Both the position numbers and the translations under genes were made by a program. A stretch of 64,000 bases of DNA from Pirellulales bacterium (lineage in GTDB: Bacteria > Planctomycetota > Planctomycetia > Pirellulales > PNKZ01). This document shows, piece by piece, positions 2,130 through 11,159 of this stretch (the stretch's first letter is position 1; the number at the start of each line of letters is the position of its first letter). The notes under the pieces were generated by a model. It was not told the DNA's origin. It ran no database searches and saw nothing but the letters and a program-made list of their open reading frames with translations. The stretch spans positions 40,151-104,150 of the forward strand of contig JASGKB010000001.1 in assembly GCA_049840675.1 (NCBI GenBank), given 5' to 3'.

Positions 2130-3612
2130 TCATACGAGCAGATCGTCGAGCGGCGGACGCCAGAGCGGCAGCCGCGGAAAGAGCACGGCCGCGGCTTGCA
2201 GCGTGGCGGCGTTTGTCGCTTTCACGCGCCCAGCGGCGGCGGCTTCTTCCAAATCGAGATGCCCCAAGAGCATCCGCGTGAAATCGGCGCCGCTCAGCTT
2301 CACGACGCTCCGACCCAGCGAACCTCGCGGGCCCGTCACACGTTCCAGCTCCGCAGCGCGAGCCGAAACGCCGACTTTCAGCCGCAACTCTCCTGCGGCG
2401 ATGCCGATCTCGGTCGGTTGCCGCAGTCGCTTGGCTTGTTGCGCCGCTGCAGCACGGGCATGGAGCGTCGGCAGCAATCGTTCCAAGAAAGCCTCCGGAT
2501 CAGCGAGCTTCACCATCGTCACTTCCCCATGGCTCGCTTCGCTGCGATGAAGCTCGGCGCCGGAACCTTCGACGATGTTCCAAAGCCGATCATTGGGAGC
2601 CAAGTGCAACCGCACGATGTGATGGTCGCGTTCGATCGCTTCGCCGCAGGCCCGGGCCAGCAGTCGCTCCGCCGTGCCGGGATGTTTGGCCGAGGCGACG
2701 AGCTCCAAGATGCGATTGTCGCGTTGCACGACGTAGCCGACGATCGAATCGTCGTGGAAATCGAAGTCGAAGCGCTTCGGGCCGGCCAGCGCCACGAAGA
2801 TGTTCTCCGCCGCTTGCCGGCCGACGAGCCAGCGCCAGTAAGCTTCCGTACGTTCGTAAGGCCCGGAGGCCCGGGCGGTTTGTTCGCCGTAGAGTCGCAC
2901 CAGCGAAGGCAATTCGACGTGCCGCCAAGGGCGAATATTTAGCACGTCGCCGGCGGCGTCGTGCGGTGCGAAGCCGCGGGCTGAAAGTTGCGCGAGCAAG
3001 TCGCGAGCCCCGACCACGGCATGGCTGTGCCGCATGCAGACGACCCAACCGTGACCGCGAAAGAAATGCGGAGCTGCGCGTCGTCAGGATGCCGAGCGTC
3101 GAACCTTCGGCCGCGAGTTGTTCGTCGACTTTGTCGAGCAGCCGACGTCCATAGCCGCGGCCGCGAAACTCAGGCAAGATCGCCAAGCGATGCAGGGCTG
3201 AAGCCGTGAGGTTTTCGCCTTGAAAACGCATCACGCGCTGGGCCAAATGCGCATGGCCGACGAGATGCGAACCACGCTTGATCACCAGCCGATCGCACGG
3301 TTCGTAGAAAGGATCTTCCAACGAAGCCGAAAACTCGTCGCGCGACGGAGCGTGAAATACGGCCGCCAACAATTGCTGGATCGCCGGATGATCGCCCGCC
3401 GAGGCCGGCAAGACTTCGCAACGCTCCGCACCCGCCTTGTTCACCGCCGGAGGTTCGCCGGCGACCACGCCTAACGGCCAAACGTATTCATCCGGTGCGG
3501 CCTCGGGAAACGTCGACTTCTTTTTGGCCGGTCCTGTGGATAACTTGTCGACAACCGGGGCTGCTGGATTTCGGGGTGAAGAATGACCGCCGAGAGAATT
3601 GTCCGAGCGCAT
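2130..3612 (-). CDS. Eis-like tandem GNAT acetyltransferase with C-terminal SCP2-like domain; frameshift near 3060
   Basis: Acetyl-CoA motif [11 protein letters not shown], second GNAT-like region (RTEAYWRWL...VGYVV), and a C-terminus typical of the Eis architecture ([17 protein letters not shown]...LFP). GAAGGGA RBS before the ATG at 3612. Joins ORFs 2590..3612 and 2130..3035. Confidence 0.8.
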
Positions 3613-3660
3613 AGCCAGAATCCCTTCTGTTTGTCAAGGCCGATCCGCTGGACCGGTAAC

Positions 3661-5329
3661 TTAACGCCAACGCGCAGCTATCGCTAGCAAAAAATCGCGC
3701 AAATCCTTTTCGGGAAATAGGTAGGCGCTGTACTCGCGCGATCCGAAGTAACTCGGCGACGCGTCCCGCCGCGTGGCTCTCCTTAGCAATATGCCGCCAC
3801 TTTTCCGCCTCACCGGCCACCAGCGGCTGCAGCGTTTCGTTGGCCGCGCGAATTGCCTGGCAGCGGATTCGCGCAGTTTCCGCGGTGGGAATTATGTCAG
3901 TCCAGCGACGTTTCTCGGCCACGGCCGCCGCGGCCGTTTCCCGCTCCGCCGGGTTCGAAATATCGGCCGGATGCAGAAACCGCTCCGGATGATGCCGAAG
4001 CTCCCAAAGCCGATGCCGGGCCGTCGGCTCGTCGACCGCGGACAACGCCTCGACCGCCGGTCGACCGGCTTCGTCGACAATCGGCAGCTTCCGCGTGGCC
4101 GTTACGACGGCGAACTGCGGCGGCGCAACGGCGAAAAACCGGCCGAGGATCGCATCGGTAAGTTCGTCGTACTTGCCGCCGCCGATGCCGTGAACAAAGA
4201 GGTCGCCGAGTACCACGCGCGCATACATGGTCGTCAGCAAGGCTCGGCTACGGAGGCGAATGCCGCGCCGGGCCGCTTCGTGGAGCGCCTCGGCGAAATC
4301 GTCGTGCCGAGCATCGACGAGAGGCAACTTGAGCACGAGGCCTGCCCGATCGGTGAGTTCGACTTCGCGGCCGCCTCCCTCACTCACTCGGCGTCGTACG
4401 AACACGTGCCGACGTCGCGGCTGGTCGACGGTCCACAGCCAAAGAGGCGATTCGAGCCAGTCTCCCTCCTGCTCCAGAGCCGGCACCGGATGATTCGCGC
4501 TGCGAATATTCTCGCGCCGCTTGTAAATCTCCAGTTCCGAATTGTGCGCTTCGACGAACCGCGGCAACTCGGCAACGAGGTGGCCGACGAAACGGCGGAA
4601 GTGATGCGAATCGCAAACGTGACTTTGCGGCAGTTCCAGCGTGCCGAGCCCCCAGGAACCTTCCAAGCGATGGCGGGCCTGCGCGATCGCCAAGCCGAGC
4701 TTGCCGCAAGCCTTGGCCTGTCGCACGACGTCGGGCCAGAAACTTCGCAACAACGGGTCAGCCACGAACGGCCGTAATGCGTCCGCGACGCGATTTCCGA
4801 ACGAGGCAAACATCGCCGCGTCGAGCACGCGTCGCTCTTCGAAGGGAATCTCGTCTCCGGGTGCGTCGAAGGGAACGCTCTCCACGTTCGGTTCGCGCAG
4901 GCTCCCGGTCGGCACGCGGAGCGACGCCGCTTTGAGCGTGTCACCGTCGATCACCAAGTTAACGGCCGTGCCGCCGACGGCCGCGGCCAAACCCGAGAGA
5001 GCGAAATTCTTGGCCCACACGCCGGGATGAAAGAGTTCCGGCTGGTGACCGGCCAACAAGAGAGGCGAGTGCGAAGCGCTGAGCGGGGAATGCGAAACGT
5101 CGCGATAGGTGCGAGTGTAGGCGGTCGCCGCGGCGACAAACTCCGCGCGGGCCGTGGCCGCGAAACCTCCGAACGACTGGCCGGCGAGGCCCAATGACCA
5201 CCGTGCGCGTTCGGCGATGTTTGCGCCGACGACGCCCGGCAACTCGTTTGCCGCCCGATCGATGAGCACGCCGCCGTCTTCGCGCGGGGCACGAAGTTTG
5301 CGACGGCCGACGTCGGTCATCCCGCGCAT
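3661..5329 (-). CDS. Conserved hypothetical protein, remotely BshC-like (putative cysteine/amino-acid-adding enzyme); frameshift near 3742
   Basis: The motifs LAGHQPELFHPGVWAK, VNLVIDGD and FVHGIGGGKYD occur in the same order as the BshC motifs GQQ..LF.GP, FW..EDHD and GPGEIAY. The corrected C-terminus SREYSAYLFPEKDLRDFLLAIAARWR* ends at 3661. Confidence 0.6.
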
Positions 5330-6075
5330 TCCTCACAGTTCGCGAGCGTGCCGGTCCAAAGCTCTCCGGCATGGCTCCCTTCGCCCAGACGAGCGAAGCT
5401 GCGATCGAGCACTAAGTGGTAGTACTCAAGCCGCGTCCAACTGTTGTCGAGCGAGCCGCCGAAGGAGCGTTTTTCGTCGAGGTAGATGCGGGGCACGGGA
5501 AGTTCGCGAATGCGGAGCTTTGAGTACGCCGCTTGAACCCACAATTCGAGCGGCATCGCGTAGCCGGCCTCCAACACCTGCAGGTGCTTGAGCGCTTCCA
5601 CGCGGTAAGCTTTGAACCCGCAGAACGCATCGGTCAGGCTCAAGCCGAGCCGACGGTTGAGTTCGGCCGTGAGTTGCTGATTGATCCGCTTCCGCTCGGG
5701 GGGAGCTTCGCTGTCGCCCGGATAGTTCTTCAGGTAGCGACTCCCCGAGACGATGTCCCAGCCGTCGCAGGCATCGACGAAGCGCGGGATGCGCTGCGGC
5801 TCGTGCTGGCCGTCGCAATCGATGGTGACGAGAACGTCGTAGTGATGCCGTTGAGCGTACTCGAAGGCCGTCTTGAGGGCGGCTCCGTAGCCGCGGTTTT
5901 TAGCGTGCCGCACGAGATGGACATTCGGCAATTCGTCGAGTACTTCACTCGTGCCGTCGGTGGAACCGTCGTCGACGAGCAAAATCTCCGGGCTGTAGCG
6001 GCGGACTTCTTCGACAACCCCGCGCACGTGCCGGGCTTCGTTATAGACGGGCAAGGCGGTGAGAAAGCGAGTCAT
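5317..6075 (-). CDS. Glycosyltransferase family 2 (DPM-synthase-like)
   Basis: Motifs LPVYNE, VDDGSTDGT, NRGYGAAL, DCDGQH and DAFCGFKAY. Start placed at MTRFL; the 3' end overlaps the next gene. Confidence 0.9.
   Translation of the reverse strand: MTRFLTALPVYNEARHVRGVVEEVRRYSPEILLVDDGSTDGTSEVLDELPNVHLVRHAKNRGYGAALKTAFEYAQRHHYDVLVTIDCDGQHEPQRIPRFVDACDGWDIVSGSRYLKNYPGDSEAPPERKRINQQLTAELNRRLGLSLTDAFCGFKAYRVEALKHLQVLEAGYAMPLELWVQAAYSKLRIRELPVPRIYLDEKRSFGGSLDNSWTRLEYYHLVLDRSFARLGEGSHAGELWTGTLANCEECAG

Positions 6076-6957: not shown

Positions 6958-6961
<4 letters not shown>
6656..6961 (+). CDS. RelE/ParE family type II toxin
   Basis: 101 aa with motifs [16 protein letters not shown] and PFPYALIY...IVAVF; translationally coupled to the upstream antitoxin. 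Confidence 0.85.
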
Positions 6962-9042
<2,081 letters not shown>

Positions 9043-9233
9043 AGAGTTCGGGCGATTTTGCAGCGGGAAAACGTCGGATTGTAACGACTTACAACACAGT
9101 TCGCTTAAGAGACACGGCGGGCTCGAATCAGGCTCGAACCCTTGCCCGGCACAATCCGTATGATACATTTGATTGTAGTCGTTTTGACTATTATCGCCGT
9201 TGGATTTAGTGTCGTTTTTTGGACTATCTCGCC

Positions 9234-11159
9234 ATGTCCGCCACAAAAACTAGCGACTCGTCTCTGTCGCTGTCGCAAGATTTACTTAGATTCGCCCTCG
9301 AACATGCCGATTCGACGGCAGTTTTTCTCGATACGGCCTTGGGAAAGCTCACCTCGACGGTCGGTGCCGACTACGCGGCCGTCGTTCGCAATCTCGACGG
9401 CCGATGGTCGGTCGTCGGGGCGTTCGGCACCACAGCCTCCTCGACTAGCTCGGCCTTGCCGACCACGCACCTTGCCGACGTGCTCGACCGCGAAACGGCC
9501 GGCGTCTCCGGCCATTGGCTGGCGTTGCCGATCGACCGCCGCAGCGCGCCCGGCGAGCTCCTAGCGCTGCACGCTCCCGACACGGCCGCCCTGAAGCGAA
9601 TGCAGGAGGCCGTCGAACAATCGCGAGGCGTGTTCGCCCAAGGCTATGCCACGGTGCGGGCCGGCGAAAAGCAACGCCGCAGCAACGAACGGCTCGCTGC
9701 GCTGCTGGAGATTAGCGGTCGCTGGAACCAGACGCAGGAGATGGAGCCGCTCTTGGTGCAGATGGCGGAAGCCGCGACGAAGATGCTCGGCGCCGATCGT
9801 GCGAGCATTTTCTTGTGGGACAAGCCGAACCGGCAGTTAGTCGCCCGGCCGGCGCTAGGCGTGGAAGGGAACGAGCTCCGCATGCCCGACGATACGGGAG
9901 TCGTCGGCAAGACGCTGCGCTCGCGCATGCCGCAACGTGTCGACGCTCGCTACGGTCAGGAAGAGATCGCCCGTGAGATCGACCAGAAACTTGGCTATCG
10001 CACGCGGACGCTGCTGTGCGTGCCGCTCGCGTCGCGCAAGGGGGAAATGCTCGGCGTTTTCGAAGTGCTGAACAAGCGCGAGGGAGACTTTAACGACGAC
10101 GACGAGCAAGCCCTTGTCGAGCTGGCGGCCCACGCCGCTACCGCGCTGGAAAACACGCAAGAACGCGAACGACTGCTGCAATCGCGCCGGCAATTGACGG
10201 AAGAAGCGGCGGCGGGCGTGCGGCTCATCGGCGACTCGCCGGCGATTGAAGCCTTGCGCTCGACGACACGCCGCGTGGCCGACACGGAGCTGGCCGTTTT
10301 GATTCTCGGCGAGAACGGCACAGGGAAAGAAGTGGTCGCTCGCACGATTCACTACTTGAGCAGCCGGCGCGATCAGCCGTTTATCGCGGTGAACTGCGCA
10401 GCGCTCACCGAGACGTTGCTCGAAAGCGAACTCTTCGGACATGAGAAAGGGGCCTTCACCGACGCTCACGAAGCGCGGCCCGGCAAGTTTGAACTCGCCA
10501 ACGGCGGGACGCTGTTCCTCGACGAAATCGGCGACTTGAGCCTCGGCGGGCAGGCAAAACTCCTGCGCGTGCTGGAGGAGAAGGTCGTCGTCCGTGTCGG
10601 CGGATCGAAGACCATTCATACGGACGCGCGCGTCATTGCGGCGACGAACCAAGATCTAGGGGCGATGGTTCGCGAGAAGCGTTTTAGGCAAGACTTGTTC
10701 TTCCGTCTGAACGTCGTCTCGATCCATCTCCCGCCGCTCCGGGATCGGGCCGGCGACATCATCCTGCTGGCCGAACATTTCTTAAGCGACTTCGCCCGAC
10801 GGGCCCGTCGCAAAGTGCCGCAACTTTCGGCGGCGGCCAAAAAGCGGCTCGAAATGCATTCGTGGCCCGGCAACATTCGCGAACTCCGCAACGCGATGGA
10901 ACGGCTGGCCTATTTGTGCCCGGGCGAACGGATCGAACCGGAAGACCTGACGTTTATCCTCGCCGCCGGAAGCGAAGCGCCGGCGGCCGTGCCCGACAAC
11001 TTACCGCTGGCCGAAGCGACCGACGAATTTCAGAAGGCGTACATCACCCGTGCCATCGCCCGCAGCGGCGGCAACATGAGCGAAGCGGCCGAACGCCTGG
11101 GGCTGCATCGTTCGAATTTGTATCGCAAGATGCGACAACTCGGGATGCCGACGAGCTAG
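9234..11159 (+). CDS. Sigma-54-dependent transcriptional activator (GAF + AAA+ + Fis HTH)
   Basis: GAF domain, [37 protein letters not shown] and a C-terminal HTH ([19 protein letters not shown]). Confidence 0.95.

Follow-up and report, generated by a model that had tools for sequence, protein, structure and literature searches.

Cells owe their redox balance to low-molecular-weight thiols, and the biosynthesis of one of them, bacillithiol, is the described route with which the gene cluster discussed here is best compared. Our reference set for this route comprises BshA, a GT4 glycosyltransferase (TIGR03999), BshB1, a deacetylase of the PIG-L/LmbE type (TIGR04001), and BshC (PF10079/CC_BshC PF24850; structure 4WBD). 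Mycothiol is made by MshA, MshB, MshC and MshD; the free amine is acylated by MshD in mycothiol synthesis and methylated by NmbA in the synthesis of N-methyl-bacillithiol. In the passages found of PMC5790435, BshC is described as dimerizing via a coiled coil, and its reaction as never having been reconstituted in vitro. Planctomycetes have been named as a major lineage without a documented or predicted low-molecular-weight thiol (Hiras et al. 2018), and they are not mentioned in the passages found of the paper on NmbA (PMC12719100), in which BshABC were surveyed by BLAST. Here we describe a cluster of three genes in a 64-kb stretch of a Pirellulales bacterium contig (the window, by which we mean the whole stretch analysed), encoding a GT2 glycosyltransferase, a protein of about 555 amino acids (aa) that we call X, and an Eis-type acetyltransferase of the GNAT superfamily. 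With somewhat more confidence than doubt, we read this cluster as part of a variant bacillithiol-type pathway, in which the GT2 enzyme replaces BshA and X replaces BshC, and whose product would be an aminoacyl-glucosaminide and, in the likeliest case, a low-molecular-weight thiol that carries cysteine. Our full-text search of the literature, supplementary tables not included, returned no description of the X family or of a GT2-based route.

A preliminary description of this DNA had recognized three co-oriented genes, the first two overlapping and the third 48 bp further on, and had assigned them to a GT2 glycosyltransferase, an unannotated protein of about 555 aa read in a corrected frame, and an Eis-type GNAT. 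Each of these assignments held in our analysis, and all three genes lie on the (-) strand:

5317..6075, (-) strand: GT2 glycosyltransferase, 252 aa, soluble, with a DPM1/ArnC-like GT-A fold (PF00535; AlphaFold2 model)
3661..5329, (-) strand: X, BshC-like protein of an unnamed planctomycete family, 555 aa after frame correction (family alignment; fold)
3743..3748, (-) strand: frameshift site in X, where the window has one base more than the family reading and the conserved C-terminal 27 residues are replaced (three-frame translation; alignment A1; two-frame profile matches)
2130..3612, (-) strand: Eis-type acetyltransferase (GNAT ... SCP2), split into open reading frames 2590-3612 and 2130-3035 (Acetyltransf_9; SCP2_2)
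3076..3079, (-) strand: frameshift site in the GNAT gene (three-frame reading; two-frame profile matches; comparison with locus L001)

Distribution and linkage of X, GT2 and a BshB1-type deacetylase

The strongest evidence is the phyletic pattern, which was obtained by searching 201 sampled Planctomycetota genomes with six models and cross-tabulating the resulting lists. X is encoded in 35 of these genomes and canonical BshC (PF10079) in 102, and no genome has both. BshA scores above its cut-off in 92 genomes, all of them holders of BshC, and in none of the 35 holders of X, where the best score is 175 bits against a cut-off of 273.7. At E<=1e-80, a profile of the GT2 subfamily retrieves exactly the 35 genomes with X, which span 14 family labels, and this co-occurrence holds even where the two genes lie hundreds of kb or whole contigs apart (G032, G118 and G156). 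Of the 35 X holders, 34 encode BshB1 (TIGR04001, E<=1e-30), as do 99 of the 102 BshC holders but only five of the 64 other genomes, where all five matches are weak (1e-31 to 1e-35). Among 14 control genomes, TIGR04001 matched only those of the known bacillithiol producers, B. subtilis, T. thermophilus and D. radiodurans. Searches with the BshA and GshB models gave no recognized glutathione or bacillithiol route in the holders of X; GshB exceeds its cut-off in a single genome of the 201, and reaches at most 90 bits in the X holders. As X and BshC are strictly alternative, and both are accompanied by a BshB1-type deacetylase, the pattern fits replacement within one function.

The preliminary description had pointed out that the window holds no deacetylase, and had suggested looking for one across Planctomycetota. 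No PIG-L gene was found on the whole of the window's contig, and the seven PF02585 matches of this genome (G000) all lie on other contigs. One of them, on contig 25 (G000:C25:42691-43359), is of the BshB1 type (220 bits against a cut-off of 182.5; Pfam PIG-L, 1.4e-19) and is thus unlinked to the cluster, as BshB1-type genes are in the X holders generally; the six further PIG-L genes are scattered over the other contigs. Within its own surroundings (L107:6650-7396), the BshB1-type gene stands between genes for a rhomboid protease and for a 380-aa protein of no known family, after a PfkB kinase gene. We had considered this neighbourhood as a clue to function and set it aside, as the kinase, the protease and the unknown proteins tell nothing.

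Linkage was counted in the 80 best X loci, which are a biased sample because they are the top-scoring relatives. Upstream sequence longer than 300 nt is available for 78 of them, and in 73 of these GT2 immediately precedes X, co-oriented with it; GT2 is 1-4 kb off in two of the others and absent from the flank in three. The linkage of the first two genes, for which the preliminary description had proposed a check, is therefore borne out both by position and by co-occurrence in 35 of 35 genomes. It also extends to X', a shorter sister group of X (430-462 aa) that is clearly homologous to it (hhalign probability 99.8%, E 3e-30), with GT2-X' pairs found in distant clades (L097 and L098). In one further genome, both kinds of glycosyltransferase occur near X': at L096:5322-7882, a GT4 gene comes next after that of X' (442 aa), and its 175 bits on the BshA model fall short of the cut-off; GT2 is 3.4 kb away on the other strand. 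For the GNAT, a proposed link fared less well. The gene follows X in 44 of the 74 loci with more than 900 nt of downstream sequence, but strong matches to its subfamily occur in only two of the 201 genomes, G000 and its order-mate G190. We had considered the GNAT as a core component and rejected it on this count; it is a lineage-specific addition.

A connection between the two kinds of pathway comes from four genomes of one family that encode PF10079 BshC and have no BshA above the cut-off. In three of the four (L101, L102 and L103), a gene of the GT2 subfamily (E ~1e-71) directly follows the BshC gene; in L101, for example, BshC (8106-9722; 265.6 bits to PF10079) and GT2 (7333-8106) overlap by one base. 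GT2 thus goes together with a BshC-type enzyme in genomes without BshA, and this enzyme can be either a recognizable BshC or X. The canonical planctomycete operon (L100:3320-7558) consists of genes for a SAM-methyltransferase, BshC, a PIG-L deacetylase and a GT4 BshA, and probably encodes the N-methyl-bacillithiol route; by its gene order and the published papers, the methyltransferase would be NmbA. As this operon carries a methyltransferase gene beside that of BshC, there is a precedent for a capping enzyme in the position that the GNAT occupies here.

Other genes recur around the cluster as well. A NIF3/DUF34 gene (PF01784, 1e-73 to 5e-75; for example L002:4144-4941 and L011:4244-5053) is found immediately ahead of GT2, in the same orientation, in 34 of the 80 loci, and is not found in the window; proteins of this family have a metal-centre fold and their function is unsettled. 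A gene for a xylose-isomerase-like TIM barrel (AP_endonuc_2; for example L026:1300-2211) is found upstream on the opposite strand in 24 of the 80 loci, and another (L096:7951-8784) directly follows the X'-GT4 pair; this enzyme might supply or modify the acceptor. A conserved deacetylase beside the cluster was also a candidate and was rejected, since the only other recurrent neighbours were these two, a transketolase, kinases and a sigma factor, all either unrelated or unexplained.

Predicted fold and sequence family of protein X

The predicted structure of X points to BshC. An AlphaFold model of an X family member with 71% identity, built from the family alignment (pLDDT 90.4, pTM 0.86), has B. 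subtilis BshC (4WBD) as its top Foldseek match (E 4e-12, TM ~0.5). VIA re-alignment of the model with 4WBD gave Z 23.7 and rmsd 6.3 over 451 residues, covering the model range 6-572 and including the long C-terminal helices (477-495 and 503-545). In a scan of 48,161 chains that was independent of Foldseek, 4WBD was again at the top (Z 23.7), and the matches came in the same order. Next is class I LysRS (1IRX; Z 18.6, rmsd 3.4, 281 residues; Foldseek 2.4e-6), and beyond these two no match exceeds Z 9.9, with GlnRS, GluRS, CysRS and MshC at about 9. The model thus combines the two elements of the BshC fold, a Rossmann core like that of class I aminoacyl-tRNA synthetases (aaRS) and C-terminal coiled-coil helices. 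A comparison of X with BshC by fold had been suggested beforehand, on the strength of the motifs GHQPELF, VIDGD and HGIGGGKY; BshC now leads in three structure searches, and all three motifs do occupy invariant or nearly invariant columns in an alignment of 25 sequences. Because the structure searches agree on BshC, while sequence methods give no membership, we call X BshC-like by its predicted fold and not a member of PF10079; it is probably a very distant homologue of BshC.

The family to which X belongs is large and unnamed. X has no match in Pfam or NCBIfam at E<=0.01, and none of the aaRS family models of these two collections matches it; a search of its whole genome with PF10079 also gave no match. 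Homologues number 2098 among 8000 scored candidates at E<=0.001, and an exhaustive profile search gave 3947 clusters (50% identity) at the same threshold, with 2117 of these at E<=1e-30. In a scan of one genome per species, at least 556 stretches encode X, and the best 80 all carry planctomycete titles. Among the matches listed, 120 homologues are all 513-610 residues long and have no precomputed Pfam domain, and those that are named are called 'hypothetical'. Outside the family itself, the nearest clusters of the ESM Atlas contain PF10079 in 15% and 49% of their members; their scores (0.83 and 0.78) are under the reliable level, and we treat them as a lead only. We had also sought a sequence route from X to BshC and abandoned it, as Pfam, NCBIfam, PDB-sequence profiles and hhalign gave no significant match, so that the link comes from the fold alone.

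Reading frames, the acetyltransferase and flanking genes

The GT2 reading frame is open from 6183 to 5317, and the conserved start of its relatives corresponds to the ATG at 6075, which gives a protein of 252 aa. X starts with the ATG at 5329, so that its gene overlaps the GT2 stop by 13 nt. As it stands, the open reading frame of X runs from 5329 to 3488 (613 aa) and its final 84 residues are noise-like. After the residues '...VAELL', the C-terminus conserved in 24 of 24 relatives (alignment A1) is encoded in another frame of the window, with a stop at 3661, and the X family profile matches the window in two frames; for these two reasons we take the corrected gene, 3661-5329, to be right.

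The GNAT gene begins with the ATG at 3612, 48 nt past the corrected stop of X. Its two halves in the window carry Acetyltransf_9 (4.5e-14; 2590-3612) and SCP2_2 (7.9e-6; 2130-3035). In L001, the closest syntenic relative, the gene is intact, and a single open reading frame of 519 aa holds both domains (Acetyltransf_9 2e-14, SCP2_2 1.8e-5), as in the Eis-type architecture. The only PDB sequence that matches the GNAT is Eis 3sxn (E 0.0082), and the protein falls far under the curated models both of Eis (NF002368; 17.6 bits against 576) and of MshD (TIGR03448; 15.5 bits against 163.1). The gene is likewise split into two open reading frames in four further loci from metagenome-assembled genomes (L008, L032, L039 and L068), a pattern that looks like indel errors of those assemblies rather than repeated decay of the gene.

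Convergent with the GNAT gene is a gene for an alpha-glucan phosphorylase (181-2550, (+) strand; TIGR02094, 3.9e-252). The model is matched up to about residue 608, past which the open reading frame continues for 180 noisy residues into the GNAT gene, and another frame offers a short, plausible end; there is thus a candidate third frameshift near 2005 (1995-2015), within 2 kb of the others. Upstream of GT2 lies a methionyl-tRNA synthetase gene (6958-9246, (-) strand), which is syntenic with L001, and beyond it a divergent gene (9219-11159, (+) strand) whose translation alone reads as a GAF-domain sigma-54 activator-like protein. Neither of these two is conserved beside the cluster elsewhere.

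Proposed pathway, rival readings and known systems

Gene layout, predicted fold, linkage and phyletic pattern are what we observed; which substrates are used, that the product is a thiol and what the GNAT does are inferred from them as follows. The soluble GT2 enzyme would act in the place of BshA, using a nucleotide sugar as donor of an N-acetylhexosamine and, as acceptor, a small molecule such as malate or a comparable hydroxy acid. The BshB1-type deacetylase encoded on contig 25 would then free the amine of the sugar, and X, with its predicted core like that of class I aminoacyl-tRNA synthetases, would add an amino acid to it, cysteine by analogy. In this order only, the Eis-type GNAT may finally acylate the free amine of the product, as MshD does. 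An analogous planctomycete pathway had been suspected in the preliminary description, and the BshC fold and the GT2-X linkage lend computational support to that idea. Of the two analogues that it had named, bacillithiol proved the closer one and mycothiol the less close, with MshC structures at Z 9.1-9.2 on the X model and BshC at Z 23.7.

The glycosyltransferase itself raises another reading, which we regard as unlikely, namely that GT2 acts like PpgS, ArnC or GtrB and makes a polyprenyl-phosphate-linked N-acetylhexosamine on the cytoplasmic side of the membrane, and that the deacetylase and X modify this lipid-linked sugar by aminoacylation before it is flipped and passed on to an envelope glycan. 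GT2 belongs to Pfam Glycos_transf_2 (PF00535, E 5.5e-29). Its best NCBIfam match is PpgS (1.2e-30), although at 106.6 bits it is well under the cut-off of 370, and it also stays below those of ArnC (52.5 against 529) and AglJ (57.4 against 325). The closest PDB sequences are DPMS (5mlz, 6e-15) and ArnC (1.6e-12), with the DxDxQH, GSRY and D..GF stretches aligned, and ArnC, DPMS and GtrB also rank first in Foldseek with the AlphaFold2 model (pLDDT 90.3, 252 residues); the last element of the model is a single long helix (residues 212-233) that may be amphipathic, a feature that an envelope route could accommodate. However, the soluble glucosyl-3-phosphoglycerate synthase GpgS (9e-12) and MpgS (3e-10) match this model nearly as well, with TM-scores in the same range (0.64-0.71), and the protein has no transmembrane segment (maximum 19-residue Kyte-Doolittle value 0.76). 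Some polyprenyl-phosphate enzymes of the DPM1/ArnC/GtrB/PpgS group also have no transmembrane helix, so this lack alone leaves a lipid acceptor possible. Taken together with the matches to GpgS and MpgS, it makes an acceptor of the kind used by BshA or GpgS, a small hydroxy acid, structurally plausible. Also against an envelope route, the conserved neighbours in the 80 loci include no flippase, GT-C transferase or small membrane protein; GT2 stands in for BshA beside canonical BshC, and it co-occurs with a deacetylase that scores above the BshB1 equivalog cut-off.

Somewhat less improbable, in our judgement, is that the product is a soluble glucosamine conjugate other than a redox thiol, which might for example serve as a compatible solute, chelate metals or act as a signalling glycoside, and to which X adds another amino acid or an acyl group. 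Indeed, no sequence feature fixes cysteine as the substrate of X, its signature motifs differ from those of BshC, and the structure that follows BshC in rank is a lysyl-tRNA synthetase; the absence from its genome of the reductase YpdA, of YtxJ and of bacilliredoxin would suit such a conjugate too, but YpdA is also missing from four of five canonical BshC genomes. The strict alternation of X with BshC, each accompanied by a BshB1-type deacetylase, and the want of any recognized glutathione or bacillithiol route in the X holders speak instead for a thiol. A third reading concerns this genome only, and seems to us very unlikely: the frameshifts are real, and the cluster is a decaying remnant of a pathway that is dead here, whatever the family does elsewhere. 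If so, the pathway would be broken in this strain. In favour of decay, neither X nor the GNAT can be read in a single frame in the window, the shift in X removes the invariant C-terminal SREY...FP block, and the public protein set contains a 610-aa read-through form of this very X (P0001). Yet the coding sequence on either side of each shift is otherwise intact and conserved, the GNAT gene is split in four other assemblies as well, and the genome reaches 88.7% completeness despite having no more than 27 contigs. With the possible third shift in the phosphorylase gene, the shifts are so dense that they point to the assembly, and for those in X and the GNAT errors of assembly are the likeliest cause.

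Other observations weigh against the variant bacillithiol-type pathway that we favour. X is not assigned to the BshC family by any sequence method: BshC was not among the matches when PDB sequences were searched with a profile, and hhalign with planctomycete BshC gave no significant alignment, either for X (five BshC sequences; probability 0.8%, E 0.073) or for X' (probability 6.9%, E 0.0052). In these non-significant alignments, GHQ(P) and DxD of X or X' are paired with GQQ and DHD of BshC and, for X', GGG-YD also with the GP-EVAYF loop; this signal is weak, but it is consistent between the two comparisons and counts in favour of a relationship with BshC. The nearest sequence relatives of GT2 (DPMS, ArnC and PpgS) use polyprenyl-phosphate acceptors. 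When all open reading frames of the 80 loci, down to a length of 100 aa, were clustered, no deacetylase was found among the neighbours, and the co-occurrence across genomes in part reflects descent, because genomes that are related do not count as independent. Of the 35 sampled X holders, 33 lack the GNAT subfamily, and both the GNAT gene and X are frameshifted in the present assembly. The genome also encodes one ligase of the GCS2 family (E 1.2e-19) and has one weak GSH-S_ATP match, and a gamma-glutamylcysteine route may run via the GCS2 protein; PF04262 (GshA), in turn, has no match in it, which tells against a rival thiol route. No YpdA-type reductase above the cut-off, no YtxJ and no bacilliredoxin were found in it; this absence weighs little, because YpdA is above the cut-off in only one of the five canonical BshC planctomycete genomes checked. 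Finally, as the reaction of BshC has not been reconstituted according to the passages found of PMC5790435, the name 'cysteine ligase' is itself a genetic inference.

The ordinary genes for bacillithiol occur in half of the genomes sampled from this phylum, and a further sixth, including cultured Gimesia species, has the rewired set in their place. If the variant bacillithiol-type reading is correct, it would predict the missing thiol, the first predicted small thiol for the clades with X, and would mean that the pathway can start with an enzyme of an unrelated glycosyltransferase fold in place of BshA. The BshC superfamily would also grow by about 4000 sequence clusters that family models do not recognize. 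More tentatively, and with doubt outweighing confidence, we suggest an undescribed major cysteinyl-glucosaminide thiol in Planctomycetia and allied clades, whose glycosidic bond would be made by a GT-A enzyme of family 2 and might therefore differ from that of bacillithiol in anomer or aglycone, and which would be N-acylated in this order. In the same tentative vein, X, with a histidine-containing remnant of the aminoacyl-tRNA synthetase signature that is absent from BshC, could be a tractable relative for reconstituting the BshC reaction. In any case, the X family offers new proteins for working out BshC-type chemistry, and the prediction of a thiol is directly testable in existing cultures, since cultured Gimesia species, among them G. 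panareensis, G. alba and G. aquarii, carry X homologues, which are named 'hypothetical'.

How, then, does the cluster compare with what has been described? With class I LysRS (1IRX) and the cores of other class I aminoacyl-tRNA synthetases, X has a Rossmann-type catalytic core in common, but the identity is 12%, no anticodon-binding domain is matched in X, and no model of these synthetases recognizes it. DPMS/DPM1, ArnC, GtrB and PpgS are the closest relatives of GT2 in both sequence and fold, and all have a GT-A domain with DxD; GT2 differs from them in having no membrane-spanning or recognized anchoring part, in missing their equivalog cut-offs widely and in lying beside a BshC-type gene.

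The mycothiol pathway follows the same logic as the one proposed here, in that a glycoside is deacetylated, receives cysteine from an enzyme like a class I aminoacyl-tRNA synthetase, and is then N-acetylated by a multi-domain GNAT, and the structures of MshC do match the X model. However, they do so far below BshC, the GNAT of the cluster is of the Eis type with an SCP2 domain and barely registers on the MshD model, and the glycosyltransferase is not of family GT4. In the N-methyl-bacillithiol operon of other Planctomycetota (nmbA-bshC-bshB-bshA), as in the window, the gene for a possible capping enzyme of the cysteine amine stands beside a BshC-type gene; this enzyme is a methyltransferase there and would be an acyltransferase here.

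Bacillithiol biosynthesis is the closest of these systems. The present cluster departs from it in its GT2 enzyme, which belongs to family 2 with a GT-A fold, whereas BshA is a GT4 enzyme with a GT-B fold, and in X, which BshC sequence models do not detect and which has GHQP, DxD and GGGKYD as putative counterparts of GQQ, DHD and GP-EVAYF in BshC. Its deacetylase is unlinked to the cluster, and an Eis-type GNAT has been added in this order. The two also have features in common: X has the predicted fold of BshC over nearly its full length, the two proteins are mutually exclusive, a BshB1-type deacetylase co-occurs with each, and in both systems a glycosyltransferase gene is translationally coupled to a gene of the BshC type.

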